A stretch of 64,000 nucleotides of DNA from positions 736,001-800,000 of the forward strand of contig CAVZQN010000004.1 of NCBI GenBank assembly GCA_963777505.1. Reading direction: 5' to 3'. A model generated the notes under the pieces. It made no database searches, had not been told where the DNA came from, and saw nothing but the letters and a program-made list of their open reading frames with translations. A program made the translations under genes and the position numbers. Below, piece after piece: positions 3,777-33,544 of the stretch. Source of the DNA: an uncultured bacterium (GTDB lineage: Bacteria; Acidobacteriota; HRBIN11; JAKEFK01). Position 1 is the stretch's first letter; each line of letters begins with the position of its first letter.

Positions 3777-6566
3777 TTACCAGTTGAACTTGATTCCGAA
3801 TTGCAGCTGTCGTGGTTCAAACACTTCAGTCGCTTGCGCAAAACCTTCAACAGGTGTGCCTACGTCGTCATCTCCAACTGTGCGGCTTACAGTGACAGGC
3901 CTGAAGTTAAAATTTGTCCGATTAAAGAGATTGAAAGTCTCAAAGAGTAGTTCAAGTCTAAAAGGTTCCCAGCCGAAATTATATCCAACCCGTAAATCTA
4001 CCTGGAAGAAGTCTGTTCCGCGTCCAAAATTTCGTGGCATATTACCTGGGCGATCCGCTGGTGGAATTGCAAAAGTATCACCAGGTCCTAAATCGGGTCT
4101 GTCATTGCAACAGAATCCGTCACTGTTGTGGTTTCGGTCCAAAAGGAAATTAACAGGAATAGCAGAAGAGGCTCGAACTATACCGCCGAGTTGAATGCCC
4201 ATCTGCATGTCATACACACCGCCGAACGCAAAGACATGCCGTTGATCATGCGTCCCTGGCCCTTTTTCAGCACCTAGATCTGCCTGATTACTTGGCTCTG
4301 AAACACTGAAAAAATCTGCTGCATCTTCTTCCACTTTAGAAAGCGTGTACGATGCAGTAAGGCTTAAATTGTTGCTGAAACGTTTTGACACATTTGTTTG
4401 CAGTGCATGATACCAGGATCCTGCATCAGTGAGCAGCAAACGGACGCGATTGTACTGAGGGAATGGTCTCGGTTCAGGATCAACAAGATTTACTGGAGCA
4501 TTTAAGTTGCGTTCACGCGTGAGATCCTGACCACGAACGTATACATAATCGGCGCTGATTACCAGGTCGCTGGCAAGCTCTTGCTGAAGACCTATCGAGG
4601 CCTGATCGGAGAACGCAACGTCGCCATTGCTCATCGGCCGAACGTCAAATGCACCGTCCTCATAAAAGGAAGGATCCGGAAAACCACAACAAATTTGTGC
4701 CAGAACAACCGGATCAGTAATCGCCTGGACCACGTACTTTTCTCCATTAAACATTAAAGCGTTATTGTAGACATTATGGAAAATGGGCTTGTAGTAACGG
4801 CCATAGCCGCCGCGCATAATCGATTTACCGCTGCCGGTTAGATCGAATGTGAAGCCCAAACGAGGGGCGAAGTTATTTTTGTCAACAGGGGGTATTTTCC
4901 CTAACGTGATATCAGCCGTAAGTGGCACTTCCGACTGCGGACCGTCAAAACTTTCGATGTCATAACGAAGCCCAAGGTTGAGAGTGAAGCGATCATTTAC
5001 GCGCCAGTCATCCTGAACAAATACTGAAAATTGGTGGTTCGTATCTTCGTTTACAGGATCTCCTGTACCAACGAAAAAGTAGGTTGGAAATGTATCAGGA
5101 TTGTTCGGATCAAATGGTTCATCTGTTCCAAAGAAGTAACCGCCTCCGAAATATTGAGCAAATAGGATTTCTGGTTTGATGTAAATGTAATCGACGCCCG
5201 TCTTGACTGTATGTTCTCCTTTATTCGTATTAAAAACTTGTGTGTAGGTGTCCAGGAATTCAAACCTGTTTTCCTCAAAACGCTGCGGACAGCAATAATG
5301 ATGTCCAGTGACAGCACTGGGTCTGTACAAAGCCGGGCCAACACCTTCTACAACGTCTTCTCGGACAATTCTTCCATATTGAAAGAGCGCTTCATTGTAG
5401 GAACTATCTGAAAGTATGGCATTGTGCGAAACAGCAGCCGATTGGGATTCTATGTTCTGAACAATCCCCTCCACATATCTGCCGCCAGCATAAAAACCTG
5501 CCTCCGAGCGGTCCTGAAAGTTATATCGGAACACCATTGACTGATCTTCATTAAGGTTATGATTGACCTTACCAGTGAATAGCTTCAGATCAATTGGTTT
5601 CGGACGGACTCCAGTAGGAAATTGTGGAACTGGAGCAACGGAAAGGGAGCCATCACGATTGGTTTGTTCGTAGGCAGCGAAAAAGAAAGTTCTGTTTTCT
5701 ACGATCGGTCCACCCAGAGTTGCGCCGCCTTGTTGTTGATCAACTGGAAAATCTACGTTGTTTTGTTCTGAAAAGAAGTCTTGAGAATCAAGCTCGTCAG
5801 GGCGAAAGAAGAAAAATGCGTTTCCATGAAATTCATTGGTTCCTGATTTTGAAATTACGTTTACAACACCCGATGTCGAACGTCCATATTCAGCTGAAAA
5901 TCTATTTGTAAGGAGTTGGAATTCTTGTATTCCTTCTTGCGTGAAAAGGCTACGTGCTTCATTTGTATAAGAGAAGTTGTTTTCGGCGCCATCAATTGTG
6001 TAATTGACCGCATCACCGCGTTGTCCGCCGATCGTGAATTGTCCGTAATTCACAAGTGTGCCGACTGCTTTAACACCAGGAGCTAATAAAGCCAGCTGTG
6101 TATAATCACGGCCGTTTAACGGTAGGCTTTCAATGCTTTCGTCCGTTATAGTCTGTCCAAGAGCCGATTTTGTTGCATCGATTAACGGGGTTTCACCGAC
6201 AATCTCCACTGATTCTTGAGTTGCCGATGCCAGCTTTAGCGTAAGATCCTTTATGATTTCTTTTCCAACGGTGAGAATGATTCCCGTTTGCGTTTCTTTA
6301 GCAAACCCCGCTACTTCAACAGAAATGTTGTAGGTTCCTGGCTGCAAAAGAGAGATACGGTATGAACCATTTTCTTCCGAAGTTGTGCTTCGCGAAATAT
6401 TTGTCGCAACATTCAATGCCGTAACCGTTGCACCTGGCAAAGGTCCACCTTTATCGTCACTTACTGTGCCAATGACGGTTGCAGTTGTTTCTGCTGCGAA
6501 AATGTTGGTTGTTATAAGAAGAAAAAGAAAAAAGAAACCGATAACTCCAGTGGTACAGCGTCTCAT
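3777..6566 (-). CDS. Oar-like TonB-dependent outer-membrane receptor with N-terminal carboxypeptidase-regulatory-like domain
   Basis: Signal peptide; GTVSD..G.PLPGATV; LPLNGRDY; FSAEYGR..GVVNVISKSGTNEFHG; QDDWRV..TLNLGLRYD; NNFAPRLG; C-terminal PRQLQFGIKFNW. Confidence 0.93.
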   Translation of the reverse strand: MRRCTTGVIGFFFLFLLITTNIFAAETTATVIGTVSDDKGGPLPGATVTALNVATNISRSTTSEENGSYRISLLQPGTYNISVEVAGFAKETQTGIILTVGKEIIKDLTLKLASATQESVEIVGETPLIDATKSALGQTITDESIESLPLNGRDYTQLALLAPGVKAVGTLVNYGQFTIGGQRGDAVNYTIDGAENNFSYTNEARSLFTQEGIQEFQLLTNRFSAEYGRSTSGVVNVISKSGTNEFHGNAFFFFRPDELDSQDFFSEQNNVDFPVDQQQGGATLGGPIVENRTFFFAAYEQTNRDGSLSVAPVPQFPTGVRPKPIDLKLFTGKVNHNLNEDQSMVFRYNFQDRSEAGFYAGGRYVEGIVQNIESQSAAVSHNAILSDSSYNEALFQYGRIVREDVVEGVGPALYRPSAVTGHHYCCPQRFEENRFEFLDTYTQVFNTNKGEHTVKTGVDYIYIKPEILFAQYFGGGYFFGTDEPFDPNNPDTFPTYFFVGTGDPVNEDTNHQFSVFVQDDWRVNDRFTLNLGLRYDIESFDGPQSEVPLTADITLGKIPPVDKNNFAPRLGFTFDLTGSGKSIMRGGYGRYYKPIFHNVYNNALMFNGEKYVVQAITDPVVLAQICCGFPDPSFYEDGAFDVRPMSNGDVAFSDQASIGLQQELASDLVISADYVYVRGQDLTRERNLNAPVNLVDPEPRPFPQYNRVRLLLTDAGSWYHALQTNVSKRFSNNLSLTASYTLSKVEEDAADFFSVSEPSNQADLGAEKGPGTHDQRHVFAFGGVYDMQMGIQLGGIVRASSAIPVNFLLDRNHNSDGFCCNDRPDLGPGDTFAIPPADRPGNMPRNFGRGTDFFQVDLRVGYNFGWEPFRLELLFETFNLFNRTNFNFRPVTVSRTVGDDDVGTPVEGFAQATEVFEPRQLQFGIKFNW

Positions 6567-6683
6567 GTTGTTAGCCTCCGTTAACCCTGGTCGGATCTAC
6601 TCATTTCAATTTGGAAAAGAACTGTGTACACCCATTATACAACGAAATTCTATAACAAAAGATGAACTTATCTGAGTGGATTT

Positions 6684-8189
6684 CTACTCGGAGAGAGTAA
6701 TTTCATAAACGGTAGTATATTCATCCGAAAACCGTTTTGTAAATCGCTTATCATTATCCGCTTTTTCGATAAATGATTCGTGTTTATTGTCAGTTAATAC
6801 GAATCTTGAGCTGAATTTCTCTAAAATTTCGACTGCAGGATTTTTGATTTTCCCACGAGTGATTTTTTCATAGTCACGATACAGTTTTTCATTTTTCAAC
6901 CGCATAAAGTCGGCATCAAGGCCGACAATATACCGGTTGTGTGAGTTGAAATGAAAAAGCATCGGAAAATCATCCCAATCAGTATTGAATGTAATCGATC
7001 CTGCCGGCGTATTTTTCATCAACCATTCAGAGCCTTTTTTATAAGTGTAATATTCGGGAGATTCACGGACGTCCTGGCGGACGCGAATTACTGTAATTGC
7101 AAGTATTACTGACAATAACGCTGTCGCAAAAACCAATGCAATTTTTCCATAAATGTTTTGGAGAAATTTTTCAAAGGTCATTTGTGTCACGAAACTTTTT
7201 GAAGCAAAAGCTAAGAATACAATTGCCGATGGTGGAAAGTATTCGACAAACCGGCGCGATTTCATCATTAAAAATAAGTACATACTCGCAGTTAAAAACC
7301 AGAACAATCTGGCGGGATCTGATTTCCACTCTTCACGGTTTGTAGCGATGAGTGCCGATAAATAAGCCATGATCGCAAGAGTGGCGACCTTCAGAAAAAC
7401 CCACGTAGGATAAGGGTACCATTCCGATCCAACTGACGTCTCATATTTTGCCGCGAAGATCTTGGGAACAATATGATTCCATAAGAAAAGGACATCTCGC
7501 GGGAAGTATGGATTTATAACAAGGCCAGCAACAATTCCAATGCCGCTCGCCAGAATAATTCTGTATTCGAATCGCCGTTCAGTATAAGCAAATACAAGTG
7601 TTCCAATGACGGCTAGTGCCGCAACAGTTGGGAATGCGTTGTAAGTCCAAACAAAAATCGTGCAAAGTATCGCAAGACTGTAAAACTTCCGCTTCAAGAT
7701 TAAATAGGATGCGATGAATTGAAGTCCAAGACTTAAACTCGGAGCGCGAGGCATGCTCATTCGATATAAAAAAGCATGAGATGACGCGAAGAGCACAATC
7801 AACCAGAACCATGGGAATGGCACCCTATAAGTCCGCAGAAGCCAGAAGAAAGCAGCAAACGCCAGAGCCGCACAAAAAACTGCGGAAAGTTTTGCGCCGA
7901 TTCTTAAATCCCCAAAAGTGAATGGAATCTGAATGATATGCAAAAGCAAATGATGATCGCTGTAACCTTTTTCATTCAGGATAGTAAATGGTAAATAGGG
8001 GAATGGAGTTGGAATTCCTTCCGTTCTTATAAGCTTGGCCATCTTGATGTGATAGTAGCCATCAGGATCCACCGGGTTTGGACTTGCGAACTGGATGTAT
8101 GCGAGGAGTACCGCTGAAATGAAGAACGCGGCCAATAAATTGGCAACAAGGATCGGCCGCGGAGGTTTTATTTCAGCGATTGGCATCAA
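6684..8189 (-). CDS. Polytopic GT-C-fold glycosyltransferase, STT3/PglB/AglB-like motifs
   Basis: About 11-13 hydrophobic segments and a short soluble C-terminal domain; motifs DPDGYYH, SVGSEWYP, SRRFVEY and NTDWDDFP. Confidence 0.7.
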   Translation of the reverse strand: MMPIAEIKPPRPILVANLLAAFFISAVLLAYIQFASPNPVDPDGYYHIKMAKLIRTEGIPTPFPYLPFTILNEKGYSDHHLLLHIIQIPFTFGDLRIGAKLSAVFCAALAFAAFFWLLRTYRVPFPWFWLIVLFASSHAFLYRMSMPRAPSLSLGLQFIASYLILKRKFYSLAILCTIFVWTYNAFPTVAALAVIGTLVFAYTERRFEYRIILASGIGIVAGLVINPYFPRDVLFLWNHIVPKIFAAKYETSVGSEWYPYPTWVFLKVATLAIMAYLSALIATNREEWKSDPARLFWFLTASMYLFLMMKSRRFVEYFPPSAIVFLAFASKSFVTQMTFEKFLQNIYGKIALVFATALLSVILAITVIRVRQDVRESPEYYTYKKGSEWLMKNTPAGSITFNTDWDDFPMLFHFNSHNRYIVGLDADFMRLKNEKLYRDYEKITRGKIKNPAVEILEKFSSRFVLTDNKHESFIEKADNDKRFTKRFSDEYTTVYEITLSE

Positions 8190-8230
8190 TGAATCTTAGG
8201 CTCAAGGAAGGAGGAATGGTAGAGAGGGAA

Positions 8231-8257
8231 GTAGGGCGACCCTTGTGGTCGCCACTA
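8231..8257. repeat. GTAG-type REP-like palindrome
   Basis: gtag-ggcgacc-cttgt-ggtcgcc-actac, immediately downstream of the repeat-lipoprotein stop codon. Confidence 0.6.
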
Positions 8258-8259
8258 CT

Positions 8260-8904
8260 TTATCTGACGTCATCATCGTTTTCGTTGTCGTCGTCATCAT
8301 CATCATTCTCGTTATCATCATCATCGTTGTCATTGTCATCATCGTCATCGTTGGAATTTCCATCGTCATCGTTGGAGTTTCCATCGTCATCGTTGGAGTT
8401 TCCATCGTCATCGTTGGAGTTTCCATCGTCATCGTTGGAGTTTCCATCGTCATCGTTGGAGTTTCCATCGTCATCGTTGGAGTTTCCATCGTCATCGTTG
8501 GAGTTTCCATCATCATCGTTGGAGTTTCCATCATCATCGTTGGAGTTTCCATCGTCATCGTTGGAGTTGCCATCGTCATCGTTGGAGTTTCCATCGTCAT
8601 CGTTGGAGTTTCCATCGTCATCGTTGGAATTGCCATCGTCATCGTTGGAGTTTCCATCATCATCGTTGGAGTTGCCATCGTCATCGTTGGAGTTTCCATC
8701 GTCATCGTTCGTATTGCCGTCGTCGGTGTTTCCGTTGCCATTTACGGAAGGATCCCCTCCCGTACCTGTATTGTTATTAGCCCCGGGGGTGTCATTGGTC
8801 ACACCATTGTCGCTAACGCAGGAGACAATCAATATTGATAGAAACGAAACGACAATGAGGAGCAATTTCCATTTCCAAAATAGTCTTCGGTTTGTTACGT
8901 TCAT
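8260..8904 (-). CDS. Lipoprotein with long Asp/Asn-rich heptapeptide repeat (DDDGNSN)n
   Basis: AAGAGG RBS before ATG at 8904; basic N-terminus, hydrophobic core and LIVSC lipobox; then ~17 DDDGNSN units and an acidic tail. Lies between two same-strand glycosyltransferase genes. Confidence 0.8.
   Translation of the reverse strand: MNVTNRRLFWKWKLLLIVVSFLSILIVSCVSDNGVTNDTPGANNNTGTGGDPSVNGNGNTDDGNTNDDDGNSNDDDGNSNDDDGNSNDDDGNSNDDDGNSNDDDGNSNDDDGNSNDDDGNSNDDDGNSNDDDGNSNDDDGNSNDDDGNSNDDDGNSNDDDGNSNDDDGNSNDDDGNSNDDDGNSNDDDDDNDNDDDDNENDDDDDDNENDDDVR
8340..8710. repeat. 21-bp tandem repeat, ~17 copies (gtttccatcgtcatcgttgga)
   Basis: Directly visible. The substitutions seen (ttt/ttg, gtc/atc, gag/gaa) are synonymous only in the minus-strand DDDGNSN frame. 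Confidence 0.95.
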
Positions 8905-8914
8905 TTGTACCTCT

Positions 8915-9934
8915 TTATTGTGGTTGTGTGCGGGCAGCGAACTGAGCATCAACTGCCGGTTTTACGAAAGGAATTGAATTTTGTTCAGCTGCCGATCGAC
9001 CGGTAATTCGTTGAATGAAGTAAAGTGGTCTTGCCCGAACTTCATCAAAGATTCGGCCGACATACGATCCGATCATTCCCAGACAAACTAATTGAATGCC
9101 TCCCATAAACAAGAATGAGATCATGAGGGAACTCCATCCACGTACTGTGCTTTTCAGGATTAATGTTTGATAAAGAACAATCAGAATTCCGATAAAACTT
9201 ATTCCCGAAAAGAAAACCCCAAGCGCCATAATCGCTTGAAGTGGCACACGTGAAAACGAAAGGAGTCCATTTGAAGCGAGTCGAAGCATTTTTAGAAGTG
9301 TGTATTTCGTTTGACCCTCAAATCGTTCACTCCGTTCGTATTCAATTTCTGTATGACGGAAGCCGACCCAGCTGACCATACCTCGCAAAAATCTGCTGCG
9401 TTCAGGCATACTTTTTACGGCATCAACAACCGCACGGCTCATTAAACGGAAATCTCCTGTATCTACTGGAATGGATGTGTCAGCCAGTAAACGTAGAGTT
9501 CGATAAAACAAAAATGCGCTTGCGAGTTTGAACCTGGATTCGCCATTTCGATGTTTACGTTTGGCAGTCACTACATCAAAACCATCAAGCCATTTATCAA
9601 TCATTTCCGGAATCAAATCAGGAGGGTCTTGTAGATCCCCATCCATCAAAATCACAGCATCTCCGGAGGCATAATCTGTCCCGGCAGTAATTGCGGTTTG
9701 ATGTCCGAAATTTCTTGAAAGGTGAATGATCTTGAGAAAGGTATAGTGCCTGGTTAATTGTTCCATTATTGCAGCCGAGTTATCGGAGCTGCCATCATTT
9801 ACATAGATGACCTCCCAGCGGTACTGCGGAAGTAATGCGATCACATTTGAAATCCGCAAAGTGAGTTCAGGCAGGATTTTTTCTTCATTGAAAATAGGAA
9901 CGACGACTGAAATGCGATTTTGTGATTTTGTCAT
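8915..9934 (-). CDS. GT2 polyprenol-phosphate glycosyltransferase (GtrB/CsbB/YkoT-like)
   Basis: VVPIFNEE, VNDGSSD, LSRNFGHQ.A..AG, MDGDLQDPP and GDFRLMSR motifs; two C-terminal TM helices. Confidence 0.92.
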   Translation of the reverse strand: MTKSQNRISVVVPIFNEEKILPELTLRISNVIALLPQYRWEVIYVNDGSSDNSAAIMEQLTRHYTFLKIIHLSRNFGHQTAITAGTDYASGDAVILMDGDLQDPPDLIPEMIDKWLDGFDVVTAKRKHRNGESRFKLASAFLFYRTLRLLADTSIPVDTGDFRLMSRAVVDAVKSMPERSRFLRGMVSWVGFRHTEIEYERSERFEGQTKYTLLKMLRLASNGLLSFSRVPLQAIMALGVFFSGISFIGILIVLYQTLILKSTVRGWSSLMISFLFMGGIQLVCLGMIGSYVGRIFDEVRARPLYFIQRITGRSAAEQNSIPFVKPAVDAQFAARTQPQ

Positions 9935-10079
9935 GGTTGTACCTTTGGCTTTTCATATTGAATGAGGCGGTTAAAGCTCAAAAAATACATAGATTTCGGT
10001 GTGATTAAGCGAATTGAGGGCGCAGGAGGAGAAACTTCAGTATAATTAGTGTTTTATTTGCCGTTTGGAACTGCAAAGT

Positions 10080-12863
10080 ATGGACGAAAAAACTCTGAAA
10101 AAGACTCTAAATCTACCTCAAACGAACTTTCCAATGAAGGCCAACCTGGCTCAGCGCGAGCCGGAGCAGGTAAAGGTCTGGGATGAAATGGACCTGTATT
10201 CGCGTCTTCGAAAGGTCGGCAAAGGCAAGGAGCTATTTGTATTGCACGATGGTCCACCTTTTGCGAATGGCAATATCCATTTCGGTCATGTCATCAATAA
10301 GGTTTTGAAGGATCTAGTAGTTAAGTCCAGAACCATGATGGGGTTTGATTCACCTTACGTTCCTGGCTGGGATTGTCATGGATTGCCGATCGAATTGCAG
10401 GTTGAGAAAAATACGGGCGCTAAGAAGAAAAATATGGATCCTGTGGCGTTCCGGCGTGAATGTCGTAAGTATGCTGAAAAATATATCGGCATTCAGCGTG
10501 ATTCATTTAAAAGGCTGGGTGTTTTTGGAGATTGGCAGAATCCATACACAACTATGAACCCTGCATATGAAGCGACGATTGCGCGAATGTTTGGAAGTTT
10601 TTACAAAGGTGGTCATGTTTATCGCGGTTTCAAACCTGTACATTGGTGTTGGTCTTGTGAAACGGCATTAGCTGATACGGAAGTTGAATACAACAATCAT
10701 AAATCGCCATCAGTTTACGTAAAATTTCCAGTTCAAGAAGACTGGAAAGATCTTCATCCGGAATTAGCCGGAAAGAATATTTTCGTGCTGATCTGGACTA
10801 CGACTCCATGGACTCTTCCAGCAAACCTTGCAATCGCATTTCATCCGGAATTCGAATATGTCGCTTACCAGGTTCCTGATGGCGAAGTTTATATCGTTGC
10901 GGAAAAAATGTTGTCTGCGGTTGTAAAAGCGGCAAATCTCCCGGAAGGGAAGGTTCTTGCAAAAATTCCTGGAAGCCGGTTTGAAGGTCGTAAAGCTCGC
11001 CATCCATGGATTGATCGCGATTCGCTTTTGATTCTTGCTGATTATGTAACGATGGATCAAGGGACCGGTGCTGTACACACTGCGCCGGGTCATGGTGCGG
11101 ATGATTTTTACAGTGGTGTGAAGTACAGCTTGCCAATCCTGACTCCTGTTGATGAAAAAGGCAGATTTGTTCAAGATGTCGAACACTTTGCCGGTCAGTT
11201 TGTTCTGGATGCGAATCCAAAAATTGTTGAACATCTGCGAAATATTAATCGGCTTATTCATTTTGAAAATTTTGTACATAGCTATCCTCATTGTCCGCGA
11301 TGTCACAATCCAATTCTGTTTCGCGCAACAGAGCAGTGGTTTATTTCAATGGAAAAATTGCGCGATAAAGCTCTTGCAGAAATTAAGAATGTGAACTGGC
11401 TTCCCGCATGGGGTGAAGAGCGGATGGCGAATATGATTCAATCGCGGCCGGATTGGACGATTTCACGCCAGCGTACATGGGGCGTTCCTATCATTGCGTA
11501 TTATTGTGCGACTCCGGGATGCAAAAATGCAGACGTTCCTTACGAGGATCCGCGCATTTTTGATTATGTTGCTGAAATTTTCGAAAAAGAAGGCTCCGAT
11601 TCCTGGTTCATTAGAGATGCAAAAGATTTATTGCCTCCTGATGCTACGTGCTCTGCCTGCGGAAAAAATCAATTCGAAAAAGGATATGACATTCTTGATG
11701 TATGGTTTGAATCAGGATCCAGTCATGAATCTGTGCTAGGAAAAACTCACGACCTCAGATGGCCTTCAGAAGTGTATTTAGAAGGGAACGATCAATATCG
11801 CGGTTGGTTCAACAGTTCTTTGATGACTGCAATCCAGGCGCATGGCCGCGCTCCGTATCATACCGTTGTAACACATGGAATGGTTGTCGATGCTGATGGC
11901 CGAAAAATGTCGAAGAGTCTTGGAAATTATATCGACCCGCTTGAAATTTTAAAAACGTCCGGCGCTGAAATCTTGCGTGCATGGGTCGCAATGGTTGATT
12001 ATCGTGAAGAAATCAGTATCGGTAAAGAAACATTAGATCGTGTCGCAGAAGCATATCGCAAGATCAGAAATACATTTCGATATCTTCTTTCGAATCTTTA
12101 TGACTTTAATCCGAATGAGCACTCTCTTGGAAACGAGGAACTTGAACCGCTTGATCGATGGGCAGTGGATCAACTCTCGGAACTAACACGACGTGTCGTT
12201 GATGCATATGACCGGTATGAATATCACGTCGTTTATCATTCCCTGTACCGTTTTTGTGTGGTAGAGATGAGTGCCTTTTATTTAGATATTAATAAGGACA
12301 GGTTGTACGTTTCGCATCCACAAAGCAAAAAACGCAGATCGGCTCAGACAGCGATGTACAGGATTCTCGATCAGCTTGTCCGGCTTGCGGCGCCAGTCTT
12401 CTCATTTACAACAGAGGAAGTATGGCGTGAGATGCCGGCTGTTTCGAACAAAATGGAGTCGGTGCATTTGACTCAATTTCAATCTCCAGAGAATATCTTG
12501 TTGACGGATCAGGAACGATCCGAATGGGCCAGACTGGCCGAATACCGTGAAGCAGCCTTAAAATTAATGGAAGAAGCAAGACAGAGAAAAGAGATCGGTT
12601 CATCGCTGGAGGCAAAGATCATGGTTTATTATCCTTCCAGTGACGAGTCGCTCGTTCGACGTTTTGAATCATTTTTGCCGGAACTGTTTATTGCTTCTCA
12701 GGTAGAACTTCAATCATCTTCTGAATTAAGATTTGAAGTTCATAAGGCCGAAGGAATCAAGTGTATGAGATGCTGGCAAATCCGAAAGGATGTCGGGCAG
12801 GATGAGCGTTATCCGGGCGTTTGTTCTCGTTGTGCTTCAGTGCTTCAAGAATTGGCGGTGTAA
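10080..12863 (+). CDS. ileS: Isoleucine--tRNA ligase
   Basis: [14 protein letters not shown] (HIGH-type), [32 protein letters not shown] and C-terminal CxRCW zinc motif. Confidence 0.98.
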
Positions 12864-13907: not shown

Positions 13908-14600
13908 CTATTTACGTAAGCGGTAAAGCAGCTTGCCGATACGGAGTACATCGGCAAGGCTATGATGGCTCATTGCCGACGTTTCACGCGAATAAATGGT
14001 TGAAATCGGAACGCTCGCAATTTTGAATTGCTTTCTGCAGGAACAAATTAAGATTTCCGTCTCAAGTTCATATCGCAGGGTTTTAAGCTCATTGAATACA
14101 GTTCGCAAAAGATTTGTTGAATACAACCGGAAACCGCATTGCGAGTCCTCAATCCGCATTTTACAAATCCCTGAGATCAACCGATTTGATAACGAATTCA
14201 GCTGCTGCCTGTGTAATGGCATTCCTGTCAGGTCAGTCATCCGGTTTCCATAAACCAGATCAGCATGATGTTGTTCCCGCGATTCAATGAACTTTGGAAT
14301 CAATCGTGCATCATGCTGGCCATCTCCGTCCAAAGTAATAACCGAATCCAATCCAGGACGTGTATCAAGAAGGTGACGGAATCCAGTCATCAAGGCTGCG
14401 CCTTTTCCCCGGTTTTGACTATGAGCAATTAATTCAACACCAGGAATTTGAGCCTGCTTGATTGTTGAGGAGGTGTTGTCATTCGAGCCATCATCGATAA
14501 CAACCACAAGCGGTACATATTTAATTACTTCTCTCAAAACCCTTTCACAGGCAGGTCCTACGTTGTAACAGGGAATGATAACTGCATATTGTTCGTTCAT
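13908..14600 (-). CDS. GT2 family glycosyltransferase (DPM1-like)
   Basis: IIPCYN, VIDDGSND, NRGKGAAL, LDGDGQHD and DSQCGFR motifs. Confidence 0.9.
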   Translation of the reverse strand: MNEQYAVIIPCYNVGPACERVLREVIKYVPLVVVIDDGSNDNTSSTIKQAQIPGVELIAHSQNRGKGAALMTGFRHLLDTRPGLDSVITLDGDGQHDARLIPKFIESREQHHADLVYGNRMTDLTGMPLHRQQLNSLSNRLISGICKMRIEDSQCGFRLYSTNLLRTVFNELKTLRYELETEILICSCRKQFKIASVPISTIYSRETSAMSHHSLADVLRIGKLLYRLRK

Positions 14601-24593: not shown

Positions 24594-24642
24594 AAGATAC
24601 AAGATACAGGATTCAAGATACAGGATGCAAGAAGCAAGATGC
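24594..24642. repeat. Heptamer tandem repeat (aRgatNc x7)
   Basis: aagatac aagatac aggattc aagatac aggatgc aagaagc aagatgc, immediately upstream of tRNA-Glu. Confidence 0.75.
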
Positions 24643-24721
24643 AGGGCCACTTGCATTTCTAATGCCTGTGGTAGAATGCACTGGTTCAATAATTGAATAT
24701 TTATAAGTAGGAGGAAAGTCG

Positions 24722-29805: not shown

Positions 29806-29870
29806 TAGGGGCAGCATTGAGCCGCCGAAAATTCTGGTCGCAATTGACGGGCGACCGCGAGAGTCACCCT
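29806..29870. repeat. GTAG-type REP-like doublet
   Basis: gtaggggcagcattgagccgcc...gggcgaccgcgagagtcaccctac; GTAG/CTAC ends. Confidence 0.6.
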
Positions 29871-29889
29871 ACCGCACGAACAAATCCCG

Positions 29890-32015
29890 ATGGCAATCGA
29901 AGCGGAACCGCTGCAAAAATCCGAGTTTCGCCCTTACGTCCCACCGAAGTTTCTTTACCTGAATTTACATGTCGTGCCGTTCTTTTGGGTGCGGTCTTAG
30001 GAATCGTATTCGGCGCAGCTTCGGTATATCTCGGGCTCAGAGTCGGCATCACAACATCTGCATCCATTCCAATCGCAGTCATGGCCATCACGATTCTAAA
30101 AGTGCTCGGCAAATCCTCAATCCTTGAGAACAACATTGTTCAAACAGTAGGTTCTGCAGGTGAATCCATCGCCGCAGCCGTTGTGTTTACAGTTCCTGCC
30201 TTGATCTTTCTTGGTTATGCGCTTGATCCAAAAATTACATTGTTAATCGCACTGACCGGTGGATTGCTTGGCGTGTTGATGATGATTCCTTTGCGCCGGT
30301 ATTTGATCGTGAAAGAGCACGGCAATTTACGCTTTCCGGAAGGAACTGCTTGCGCAGAAATTCTAAAAGCAGGTGAAGTGGGAGGCACAAGCGCTGCGAA
30401 AATTTTCAAAGGCATGGGAATCGGCGCACTCTTTAAAGCGCTTCCTTCATTATTCGGATTTTGGAAACCTTCGCCCGGGCGTGATCTTCCATTTTATAAA
30501 GGTTCCACAATCGCGATGGATGTGGCTCCTGAATTAATGGGAGTCGGTTACATCATTGGTTATCGTACTTCTTTGATTATGTGTGCCGGCGGACTGCTCT
30601 CTTCGTTTGTTCTGGGGCCGATTCTAGTATTTGCAGGCCAGAATGCCGCAAGTCCAATTTATCCTGGAACCAGCATTCTTCCTGAAATGGGGTTCGGTGA
30701 GGTTTGGCGCAGCTATATCCGTTATATCGGTGCTGGCGCTGTTGCGGCAGGTGGTGTTCTTGGGTTGTTCCGTGCAATGCCCGCTATCTGGGATTCGTTG
30801 AGTGCTTCATTCCGCCAGCTTACAGGTGAAGGAATTCGCGGCGGTGATCGCTCACTGATGCTTCGCACTGAACGCGATACTCCGCTTACAGTAGTAATTT
30901 TTGGTTCGCTGGCACTCGTAGTATTTATCTGGCTCTATCCCACATTTCGCGTGAATTTATTGGGTGCATTTTTAATCGTAATTTTTGGCTTTCTGTTTTC
31001 TGTTGTGTCCGCGCGTATCACAGGAATTGTCGGATCCTCATCCAGTCCGCTTTCAGGAATGACAATTGCCGTTCTGATGGCAACTTGTTTTCTTTTTCTT
31101 GCCTTCGATATGAAAGGCAGGGAATACACGTATCTTGCACTTGTTATTGGAGCCGTGATCTGCGTTTGTATCAGCAATGCTGGAACGACAGCACAGGATT
31201 TAAAAACCGGATTTCTTGTTGGTGCAACGCCGCGCGCTCAACAGCTTGGACTTCTGATTGGTGTGATTGCGTCCGCGAGTGTCGTTGGTTACACGATGCT
31301 TTTGTTAAATGAAAGCCAGACGAAAGAAACTCCTATCCCACCATTTAGTCCGCCCGCAATCGCCATGCAGCACGCTGAGGAAATCAAAGGTAAAGATGGT
31401 AAATATTATTTGCTTGCGAAAGTAACTGATGTAGAAGGTGTTGAACCCGGCAATTATCTCGTTGATAAAAACACCAGGATGGCTATAAAACGTCGAGTTG
31501 ATGGGATTGGAGGCAGAGAACTTGCTGCGCCTCAAGCAAATTTAATGTCCGTTCTCATTTCAGGTTTGCTTGAACAAAAACTTCCGTGGGATCTCATATT
31601 AATTGGAGTTTGTATCGCGTTATTTATTGAGTTAATGGGTGAACATTCCTTAACTTTTGCGGTAGGAGTCTATTTGCCGATTTCTTCAACGCTTCCAATT
31701 TATGTCGGTGGTTTGATCCGCAAAATGGCGGACCGTTCTTACAAACGCACGCCTGATGATGTGGAAGAAGCTGAAGGAACTCTTATGTCATCGGGTCTAA
31801 TCGCAGGCGGCGCGCTTGTCGGAGTGTTGGGTGCATTCCTGCACTTTGTTCCTGCCATGATGTTTGATGATGATAATACCGGTTTGCCGATGGCAATCGC
31901 TTTCGGATACAAATATCTCCGTTTCCTTTGGGATATGGATTTAGTTGCTGTGATTGCTTTTGCGTTTCTAGGTTTTCTCTTATTCCGCGGCGCCGCCCCA
32001 AGAAAAACTACCTAA
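29890..32015 (+). CDS. OPT family oligopeptide transporter; single frameshift near 29943
   Basis: ATG at 29890 gives MAIEAEPLQKSEFRPYVP, the typical OPT N-terminus, one base off the EVSLPEFT frame; YLGLRVG, ENNIVQT, FPEGTACA, QDLKTG and APQA motifs. Confidence 0.9.
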
Positions 32016-33544
32016 TCATAATGCTTCAGTTTTGGCCAGGTTTCTGCCACAGGGATTTTAATCTGCCTGCATAGATAAACGATTTTATTATCTTCATAAG
32101 GCATGCAATAGTCGCAATCAATTTTTCCAACTTCTTCAACCGTTTCAAAATATCTTTTTTTCGACTCTACCGAGCCGCCCATTGTGATCAAACATTCCCC
32201 GTTAAAATCTCCGGGTCCCCAGAGCCAGTAATTATTGTGACTGCTGATTGCGACGGGTAACCCCTTTTCCCTTCCAAGAAAACTGATCGCTCCCGCCTGG
32301 CCATAATTGGAACCGAAAATTCTGCACTGTTTGCGGTCTTCCGGACTTAATTGATTCCAGACACGTGACAATTCAGTTATGTGATCATTCCAACCAAACA
32401 TATCAGCATAAAACTGAGGAAGAGAGCCAATTTCCTTTTTTTCTTCCGTGGATGGTTCTACTCCAATCCATTTTGCGTAAGCAATGTACTTTTCAACCGG
32501 CAAAACTGGGACAGCAAAAGGAAGAACAATAATGCCAGCGCCGATGACAAGCACTGCAAGAACCGGCCTCAGCCATTTAACGTGGAATGCATCGATCCAT
32601 ACAGCGATCGTTGTTGCGCCTGCCGCAAATAACATTGGATATGCTGGAGCCAGATAGCCCGGACGGCTTTTTTGATTGGCAATTAAAAGTACAAACACGG
32701 TGAGATAAATCCATCCACAAGCACGATAGGGACGTCCCGCTGGTAGAACGAAATAAAAAACCAGACCCAGCAGCCAGATCGGCGAAAGAAATGGGTTCAT
32801 TTCATCAATCTGACCAAGCAAAAATTCATAGGGTGAAATGCCTGCCATTTTCTCTTGCGTTGCATTCTTCATGAACTCCAGGGTGGGCCAATCGTTTTGG
32901 ATTTGCCAGATTATGTAAGGAGAAAACAAAACAACAGCAATTGCAGCAGCGATCCAGGGCCAAGGGGTTCTAAAATATTTTCGTGCTTGCGTCAAAAGGA
33001 GACCTGCAAAAATTCCAGCCCCGAACCATAAGACACTAATCTTATTGAGTAAACCAAATCCCAAAATGAACCCCAGTAAGATCCAATCCCGGGGTAGACC
33101 ATTTTTCAGAATCCGTATGAATAGGAAGGATCCGATTGTCCAGAAAAGCACGTCAAAACTATTCATCGAGTAGTAGTGATTATTTCCGAGGAATGATGGG
33201 ACTGCGAAGACAGATAACCCGGCAAGCAGTACACCAAATGTCGTTGCACCCAGTTCTCGCGCCATTTTCCCTGTGAACCAGATCGTCAGCCCACCTGCGA
33301 TTGCAGGTAAAAAGCGAAGGGCAAGTAGCGAATCACCCAGCACATTCCTGCTCAACCAGAGGAGAAAAATGGAAAAAGGTGGTTGATCTACATATCCGGC
33401 GGCAAGATGCTCACTGCAAGCAAGATAATAGAATTCGTCGCGGAAATATCCGTATCCTTGTGATGTCAATAGGTGGAATCCGGCTTTTGCAAGTGACAGC
33501 AAAAAAAGAACTTTCAGGGCGGAGTCATCGCTTCGTAAGTTCAT
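32012..33544 (-). CDS. GT39/ArnT-like (PMT_2) membrane glycosyltransferase
   Basis: YGYFRDEFYYL, GYVDQPP, GLLNK, YADMFGW, NYGQAGA and HNNYWLWGP motifs. Confidence 0.88.
   Translation of the reverse strand: MNLRSDDSALKVLFLLSLAKAGFHLLTSQGYGYFRDEFYYLACSEHLAAGYVDQPPFSIFLLWLSRNVLGDSLLALRFLPAIAGGLTIWFTGKMARELGATTFGVLLAGLSVFAVPSFLGNNHYYSMNSFDVLFWTIGSFLFIRILKNGLPRDWILLGFILGFGLLNKISVLWFGAGIFAGLLLTQARKYFRTPWPWIAAAIAVVLFSPYIIWQIQNDWPTLEFMKNATQEKMAGISPYEFLLGQIDEMNPFLSPIWLLGLVFYFVLPAGRPYRACGWIYLTVFVLLIANQKSRPGYLAPAYPMLFAAGATTIAVWIDAFHVKWLRPVLAVLVIGAGIIVLPFAVPVLPVEKYIAYAKWIGVEPSTEEKKEIGSLPQFYADMFGWNDHITELSRVWNQLSPEDRKQCRIFGSNYGQAGAISFLGREKGLPVAISSHNNYWLWGPGDFNGECLITMGGSVESKKRYFETVEEVGKIDCDYCMPYEDNKIVYLCRQIKIPVAETWPKLKHYD

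Follow-up and report, generated by a model that had tools for sequence, protein, structure and literature searches.

A minimal oligosaccharyltransferase-like enzyme family linked to N-x-N arrays: a candidate for dedicated protein N-glycosylation

What does a membrane enzyme modify when its gene adjoins that of an acidic repeat protein? This question is raised by a locus in a 64,000-nucleotide stretch of DNA from an uncultured acidobacterium (Acidobacteriota, HRBIN11; GCA_963777505.1, contig CAVZQN010000004.1, positions 736,001 to 800,000; hereafter the window). Here, three consecutive minus-strand open reading frames (ORFs) encode a family 2 glycosyltransferase (GT2, 339 aa), a repeat protein (214 aa) and a polytopic enzyme (500 aa from its ATG, 501 from an alternative TTG start at 8189). 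An earlier note, made from these letters alone, had described the genes as tightly packed, and the gaps are indeed short: 10 nt between the GT2 and repeat-protein genes, and 73 nt (70 nt to the TTG) between the latter and the enzyme gene. We consider it probable that the enzyme represents a minimal oligosaccharyltransferase (OST)-like family that N-glycosylates N-x-N arrays. What we observed is a fold, a set of conserved residues, a gene linkage and an N-x-N pattern, and each is described in turn.

An AlphaFold model of the enzyme, built with 80 sequences, reached a pLDDT of 93 and a pTM of 0.91. Foldseek placed OST chains on top (STT3A, E 3.5e-9), followed by DPY19, PglB and AglB. VIA-align also ranked OST chains first, with STT3B at Z 26.4 (root-mean-square deviation, rmsd, 3.7; 478 residues aligned), PglB at 24.3 and AglB at 22.9; Pmt (21.1), ArnT (19.9), DPY19 (19.8), AftA (19.7) and AftD (11.4) ranked lower. 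The STT3/PglB/AglB-like GT-C fold (glycosyltransferase fold C) that had been proposed for this protein was thus recovered by both comparisons. The model has the multi-helix membrane module of GT-C enzymes, with an acidic residue opening the first external-loop helix, and its architecture is that of OSTs, an OST-type membrane module followed by a C-terminal globular domain. Folded alone, this domain matched AglB-S2 (Z 10.2, rmsd 2.5, 110 residues aligned).

Sequence profiles gave a weak link to the same enzymes. Pfam and NCBIfam returned no family for the enzyme, Pfam gave its relatives no consistent family, the STT3 family hidden Markov model (HMM) did not match, and sequence searches of the PDB with the enzyme and three profiles produced nothing significant. 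Among 92 distant members, 19 matched TIGR04154 (AglB) at E 1e-8 to 5e-4, scoring 19-34 bits against a cut-off of 450, and just one other family was matched, once. The Dpy19 profile found 1 of 80 members, at E 0.047, and the PMT_2 profile found 0 of 80 and 0 of 91; neighbours in the Atlas that carry a partial PMT_2 score 0.94.

We then counted motif conservation in 81 sequences (80 related loci and the query); where a residue is missed, the cause is usually a gap in a truncated ORF. The order DPDGYYH, SVGSEWYP, SRRF and DWDDF, reported in the earlier note, was confirmed. Within DPDG it is the second Asp, Asp42, that is conserved (77/81), and Asp40 varies. Judged by motif order and spacing, Asp42 is the probable counterpart of PglB D56 and AglB D47, VGSE255 probably corresponds to TIXE/SVSE, and R312 is a probable equivalent of the phosphate-binding R375 of PglB. 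The distance from E255 to R312 is 57 residues; in PglB, for which D56, R147, E319, R375 and WWD are given in the text of PMC7226087, the Glu-Arg spacing is 56. DWDDF lies in the C-terminal domain where OSTs have WWDYG, and DWDD is present in 293 of 342 family sequences (D403 in 76, W404 in 79, D405 in 78 and D424 in 79 of the 81). The earlier note had proposed that WWD is altered to DWD; the register between the two motifs is approximate. By ungapped extrapolation, and with one further match that ends earlier left out, W404 falls at position 519 of the TIGR04154 profile in 12 of 19 alignments. In two alignments the match stops right at W-D, which favours loss of the first WWD tryptophan; one member, P0198, carries a literal WWD (WWDFP) and so favours loss of the second. 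PMC3527161 reports that the residues of WWD are essential in PglB. GLD424 sits roughly at the expected site of DGGK, with no clear DK/MI in the columns examined, and an unusual cluster of His and Asp (H46, D77, H79, H83) is also conserved. Taken as a whole, the enzyme probably works like an OST; it falls outside formal membership on WWDYG, the second DXD motif and the HMM cut-off.

Gene linkage was analysed in 80 GTDB loci, the best of at least 588 confirmed in a genome scan, with the closest relatives (79-86% identity) and distant members left out. A quick tree split them into three groups with support of 99-100: clade A (the query, Blastocatellia, Binatota, Zeta- and Gammaproteobacteria, and others), clade B (Acidobacteriota paralogues that keep DWDDF) and clade C (Chloroflexota). 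A filter blind to spacing (at least 50% D+N in 30 aa) found an ORF with a tract at 43 of the 80 loci, and a second one (at least 5 N-x-N per 40 aa) brought one more locus, giving 58 ORFs in all. ORFs passing the second threshold numbered 54 within 2.5 kb of the enzyme (357 kb of sequence) and 0 in the 651 kb beyond. A partner was present at 19 of 28 clade A loci and 24 of 28 clade C loci, rising to 15/18 and 19/20 where both flanks reached at least 1.5 kb. Most misses in these two clades are contig ends, and at one locus (L017) the partner is short and broken, with N-T-N-T-N. The earlier note had allowed that homologues might generally lack a repeat partner; in two of the three clades, most have one.

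The partner genes lie upstream or downstream of the enzyme gene, or converge on it. They encode bare lipoproteins, DUF5666 proteins, DUF5667 proteins beside extracytoplasmic function (ECF) sigma factors, and proteins with no family match, and their folded domains are unrelated. An N-terminal hydrophobic segment is found in 56 of the 58, the remaining two being fragments. These partners might instead be co-regulated surface or cation-binding proteins, with the enzyme modifying a polysaccharide, a glycolipid or lipid A in the manner of Gtr systems. Pairs of a GtrB-type GT2 and a GT-C classically modify polysaccharides (as described in PMC11127046), ArnT, AftA and AftD share the fold at the Z values above, and in Chloroflexota an ECF sigma factor, within 1.7 kb at 15 of 28 loci, could explain the co-location. 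We regard this explanation as unlikely, as it accounts neither for N-x-N as the sole common feature of unrelated partners from at least five phyla nor for the SVSE-like and WWD-like motifs. Most Chloroflexota, moreover, are not known to have lipopolysaccharide.

In the window, the partner is a predicted lipoprotein, called from a hydrophobic stretch followed by IVS-Cys29, and it contains 75 Asp and 52 Asn. The repeat count of about 17 given earlier proved exact, with 17 DDDGNSN units and one DGNTN (TRF: period 21, 17.6 copies, 96% match, score 684). The 17 units differ at 8 nucleotides, every one a synonymous third position, which supports the DDDGNSN reading frame. Alternative frames through the repeat (MTMETPT-like, and two on the plus strand) have no signal peptide or lipobox and were rejected, unit variation being synonymous in the DDDGNSN frame. 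The protein matched no family, and an Atlas search gave weak leads only. In the nearest locus (L001), where gene order is identical, the positional orthologue shares Cys29 and has an N-x-N repeat of a different unit.

Next, we compared Asn spacing in 58 tracts (57 from the loci, after one ORF with no Asn-rich region was dropped, and the query) with composition-preserving shuffles. N-x-N occurred 1437 times against 671 expected (2.1-fold); it was present in all 58 tracts and above expectation in 57. Other spacings were depleted (N-N 0.17-fold, N-x-x-N 0.35-fold). Once duplicate 7-mers had been removed, 66% of Asn had an Asn at +2, against a background of 32%. Period-2 spacing was seen neither for Asp in the tracts nor in 965 other ORFs. 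Of nine representatives picked by hand, one for each partner type, all 9 showed N-x-N enrichment (p at most 0.006) and none showed enrichment of D-x-N. In the query tract, 47 of 48 Asn sit in N-x-N pairs. N-P-N was found 0 times with about 25 expected, an avoidance that the OST proline rule, as stated in PMC8342417, would predict.

This pattern bears on what the sequon may be. The earlier note had taken it to be D-x-N with Ser/Thr at +1, and D-x-N-[S/T] is indeed frequent in the query (18 versus 2.6 expected) and in an Anaerolineae tract with the identical DDDGNSN unit in other codons (L042; 19 versus 2.3). However, D-x-N itself is at chance level in the query (21 versus 20.6) and at 0.70-fold over the 58 tracts, and D-x-N-[S/T], present in 29 tracts, is missing from the other 29 and significant in just one of the nine representatives, the query. 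This sequon did not hold up, and we find it scarcely credible.

A relaxed but ordinary OST, with N-x-S/T as its true target, would find two canonical sequons (N37-D-T and N44-N-T) in the mature N-terminal part of the repeat protein; P0198 has its literal WWD, and some JGI records are automatically named 'Stt3'. In the tracts, though, N-x-S/T is depleted to 0.45-fold (99 versus 220), with 50 of the 58 falling short of expectation and 23 having none, and WWD is altered in nearly all members, which makes this explanation very unlikely. Somewhat less remote, yet still improbable, is PMT-like O-glycosylation of the middle Ser or Thr of N-S-N and N-T-N. Asn followed by Ser/Thr is enriched 1.9-fold, all 17 query units read N-S-N, and Pmt1/2 is the fourth fold match, although its alignment is limited to residues 6-375. 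The middle position is most often Gly (368), then Asp (243), Ala (219), Ser (205) and Thr (137), with Ala enriched as much as Ser, and 9 of the 58 tracts hold at most 2 Ser/Thr. Trp is nearly absent from the tracts.

The lipid donor was considered next. Residues 7-312 of the GT2 match the structure of Synechocystis sll0501 (GtrB) at E 5e-87 and ArnC at 1e-49, in agreement with the GtrB-like assignment made earlier; the PgfS and ArnC models also matched it, both under their cut-offs. The protein has a GT-A domain, two C-terminal hydrophobic segments as membrane helices and full-length similarity to GtrB. GtrB loads a sugar on polyprenyl phosphate, by the account in PMC11127046, and thus the GT2 probably loads one sugar on this carrier, which makes it the candidate source of the enzyme's donor. 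A full-length GtrB-like GT2 recurs in 1 of the 80 loci (L001), and a different, short GT2 adjoins the enzyme in 12 more. All 13 loci with an adjacent donor-type GT2 belong to clade A (13 of 28), with none in clades B or C, and one natural fusion of a GT2 to the enzyme was found (P0265). The fixed three-gene unit of the earlier note was thus overstated: the GtrB-like GT2 is a local accessory.

That 67 of the 80 loci have no adjacent donor-type GT2, that the second DXD is missing and that the His/Asp cluster is present would also fit an enzyme that puts some other group from a lipid donor on N-x-N tracts, or that links the protein to an envelope polymer. The 13 loci where a GT2 of one of at least two types is adjacent, and the GT2 fusion, point to a sugar, and we hold both of these alternatives to be highly improbable. 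The window also contains a second GT-C (PMT_2, 32012-33544) and a second, short polyprenyl-phosphate-type GT2 (13908-14600), either of which could share or supply the donor pool.

Our model for N-glycosylation of N-x-N arrays takes every chemical step from the OST mechanism. The enzyme would work as a stand-alone protein at the outer face of the cytoplasmic membrane, where an exported, unfolded low-complexity tract would bind along the VGxE loop. As in OST, Asp42 and Glu255 would activate the amide of the leading Asn in N-x-N, x being any residue except Pro. The DWDD pocket would read the +2 Asn, the change from Trp to Asp in WWD enlarging it so that the Asn carboxamide is admitted. A sugar or short glycan would move from the polyprenyl-phosphate donor to the first Asn. 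Arginines may hold the donor phosphate in place of the second DXD, which is the OST metal-binding motif according to PMC8342417; DPY19, described in PMC10154233 as metal-independent and as holding the phosphate with two Arg, offers a possible parallel. The main acceptor would be encoded next door. In this locus it would be the (DDDGNSN)17 lipoprotein, turned by dense glycosylation into an acidic chain at the cell surface. The donor would come from the GtrB-like GT2 here, and in other lineages from another GT2 or from a source elsewhere.

More tentatively, and with less confidence than we place in the enzymatic activity itself, we propose that the family re-specified the sequon from N-x-S/T to N-x-N through the WWD pocket, and that it uses simple polyprenyl-phosphate sugars in a metal-free manner. 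The dense glycan arrays built in this way would cover surface proteins dedicated to the purpose, in Acidobacteriota, Chloroflexota, Binatota and Zetaproteobacteria.

Several observations weigh against N-glycosylation of N-x-N tracts by this family. Two features that define OSTs are absent: WWDYG, where the enzyme reads DWDDF, and the second DXD, which by sequence position has no counterpart, an acidic residue occurring at 143-155 in 1 of 81 sequences. Matches to the C-terminal dome span Z 10.2-8.4, with AglB-S2 level with DPY19 (10.0), STT3B and AftD, so on the strength of this domain OSTs cannot be told apart from DPY19, AftD or ArnT; such a dome is common across these GT-C families, as noted in PMC10154233. 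The prolines counted probably sit mainly at the margins of the tracts, and this would make the N-P-N expectation too high. A structural preference of the tract could underlie both the period-2 Asn and the avoidance of proline. Our tract control is limited to other ORFs and holds no N/D-rich tracts from enzyme-free genomes. The 80 loci are related to each other. One tract, from Mariprofundus (L066), is an exception in which N-x-x-N and N-x-S are favoured, and three loci with long flanks (L069, L077, L078) truly have no dense tract. None of 37 window proteins scanned against Pfam matched GtrA, and no flippase gene adjoins the locus, though the rest of the genome could hold one. Finally, in clade B a dense tract lies nearby at 0 of 24 loci.

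At 15 of the 24 clade B loci, a lipoprotein is encoded at a distance of 1.6-7.2 kb; its linker carries N-x-N 31 times (8.1 expected), compared with 0 (2.3 expected) in 16 control lipoproteins. As it is a single family, it counts as one weak observation. All 15 copies of its gene (L024:5756-6214, minus strand, and 14 other clade B loci) have an in-frame TGA in the context P-[S/G]-stop-G-C-T; the reading past the TGA is conserved and the part before it has no Pfam match. From this sequence context, the codon probably specifies selenocysteine in a U-x-C motif.

PglB, AglB and STT3, which we take to be CAZy family GT66, share with the enzyme the fold including the C-terminal dome, probable counterparts of the first-loop Asp, the TIXE/SVSE-like Glu and the Arg, with a W-D core, in the same order and at similar spacing, the weak TIGR04154 link and extracytoplasmic acceptors, as predicted for the enzyme. 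In contrast, the enzyme is about 500 aa long instead of 700 or more, is 11-14% identical to them, reads DWDDF, lacks the second DXD, has no pgl or agl cluster nearby, and is paired with a dedicated neighbouring acceptor and with N-x-N in place of (D/E-x-)N-x-S/T. A transferase gene beside that of a surface protein whose sites are densely arrayed is also the arrangement of SdgAB, which acts on SD repeats, of GtfAB (serine-rich repeats) and of HMW1C (HMW1). Those enzymes are of the GT-B type; they work in the cytoplasm, depend on nucleotide sugars and modify Ser or N-x-S/T, whereas the enzyme here belongs to the membrane GT-Cs and is predicted to act once its acceptor has been exported. DPY19 has a similar STT3-like variable module and dome (Z as above), and its monophosphate-monosaccharide donor and metal-free binding of phosphate by Arg (PMC10154233, as described there) would fit the missing DXD; unlike the present family, it is eukaryotic and reads W-x-x-W/C. 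The GtrA/GtrB/Gtr* systems also set a GtrB-like GT2 beside a GT-C, as outlined in PMC11127046, but here no flippase is adjacent, most loci lack this GT2 and the conserved partner is a repeat protein.

N-x-N has been reported as tolerated at an engineered Halobacterium salinarum site (PMC2952790) and at a low-occupancy antibody site, where the +2 Asn was docked onto the WWD loop (PMC12530493); PMC12818257 gives it as an occasional motif. As far as the text of these sources goes, it is known only as an occasional off-consensus OST site. The full-text literature within our scope, which lies mostly outside subscription journals and supplements, gave no description of the enzyme family or gene module. 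If our proposal is correct, this natural family with its dedication to N-x-N would reveal how the specificity for a sequon is rewired, and protein N-glycosylation would extend to phyla that abound in soil, sediment and sludge. Glycoengineering would also gain a small transferase made of one chain, together with an orthogonal tag. Because enzyme, probable donor synthase and acceptor lie together in this locus, the claim is directly testable with peptides.

The positions of the features discussed are collected in Table 1.

Table 1. Features of the locus, in window coordinates
Feature	Position	Strand	Basis
Minimal STT3/PglB/AglB-like GT-C transferase, 500 aa	6684..8186	-	AlphaFold model, Foldseek, VIA
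DWDDF403-407 in the C-terminal domain, where OSTs have WWDYG	6966..6980	-	domain model matches AglB-S2; exact register approximate
R311-R312-F-x-E315	7242..7256	-	R311, R312, E315 each 81/81
VGSE255	7422..7433	-	E255 81/81; invariant in 121 distant members
Arg142..Arg147, second external loop	7746..7763	-	both 81/81
Asp42, opens first external-loop helix	8061..8063	-	77/81; model helix starts at residue 42
GTAG-tagged palindrome (hairpin)	8231..8253	.	between repeat-protein and enzyme genes
Predicted lipoprotein, acidic, low-complexity, candidate acceptor	8260..8904	-	24 N-x-N sites
21-nt tandem array encoding (DDDGNSN)17	8340..8709	-	TRF
Predicted signal peptide ending in lipobox-like IVS-Cys29	8818..8904	-	sequence
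GtrB-like GT2, predicted polyprenyl-phosphate sugar synthase	8915..9934	-	PF00535 E 1e-34; sll0501 match

The family is large, with 1133 matches among 8000 scored candidates, and 2805 clusters at 50% identity match the enzyme with E no higher than 0.001, of which 798 reach 1e-30 or better. No cultured isolate is among the homologues listed, and tblastn against plasmids and phages found no match. Longer fused forms were absent from 5910 candidates of 1023-2920 aa, a range that excludes the known fusions of 729-964 aa. Seven members (P0136, P0141, P0145, P0159, P0160, P0181 and P0240) carry extra N-terminal membrane or C-terminal beta-rich domains with no Pfam match.

Some neighbourhoods have features of their own. 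In Chloroflexota (L048:10763-12750, L058:9457-11333 and others), an ECF sigma factor gene accompanies a DUF5667/DUF5666 membrane protein whose outer tail bears a Pro/Thr linker and an N-x-N tract. The sigma factor is closest to a BldN-like model, below cut-off, and the DUF5667 proteins beside such factors are putative anti-sigma factors. Since a putative anti-sigma factor carries the N-x-N tract, the cell may sense its own glycosylation state, with the membrane protein as a possible sensor. In clade B (L019:4426-7582 and others), the enzyme gene is preceded by two conserved genes with no Pfam or NCBIfam match, one for an exported protein of about 268 aa (23 loci) and one for a membrane protein of about 760 aa with a probable coiled-coil tail (18 loci). 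In Zetaproteobacteria (L061:1715-4760, L066:4941-7880), the enzyme and an N/S/D-rich partner adjoin type IV minor-pilin-like genes. Eight related Blastocatellia loci (L002:4051-5424 and seven others) have partners that join D-x-D-G-D-G acidic repeats, presumably calcium-binding-like, to an NGNAN tract and DUF5666. Four loci titled 'uncultured Clostridia' (L008, L010, L024, L025) nest among Acidobacteriota sequences that have an identical gene order, and their titles may be wrong.

The locus in the window is flanked by divergent ileS-lspA and by a gene for a TonB-dependent receptor (3777-6566), which is on the enzyme's strand and starts 117 nt past it. L001 has such a receptor at the equivalent position, followed by sulfatase and TPR genes; the receptor is outside the wider enzyme/N-x-N module. 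An Rfam scan of 6000-10500 matched nothing, and a promoter scan at the locus stayed at chance level. The GTAG-tagged palindrome, which we assume to be REP-like, possibly stabilises the upstream mRNA; it has a second copy at 29850-29872, with 0 copies expected in shuffles. A short, degenerate 7-nt tandem repeat lies at 24594-24643.

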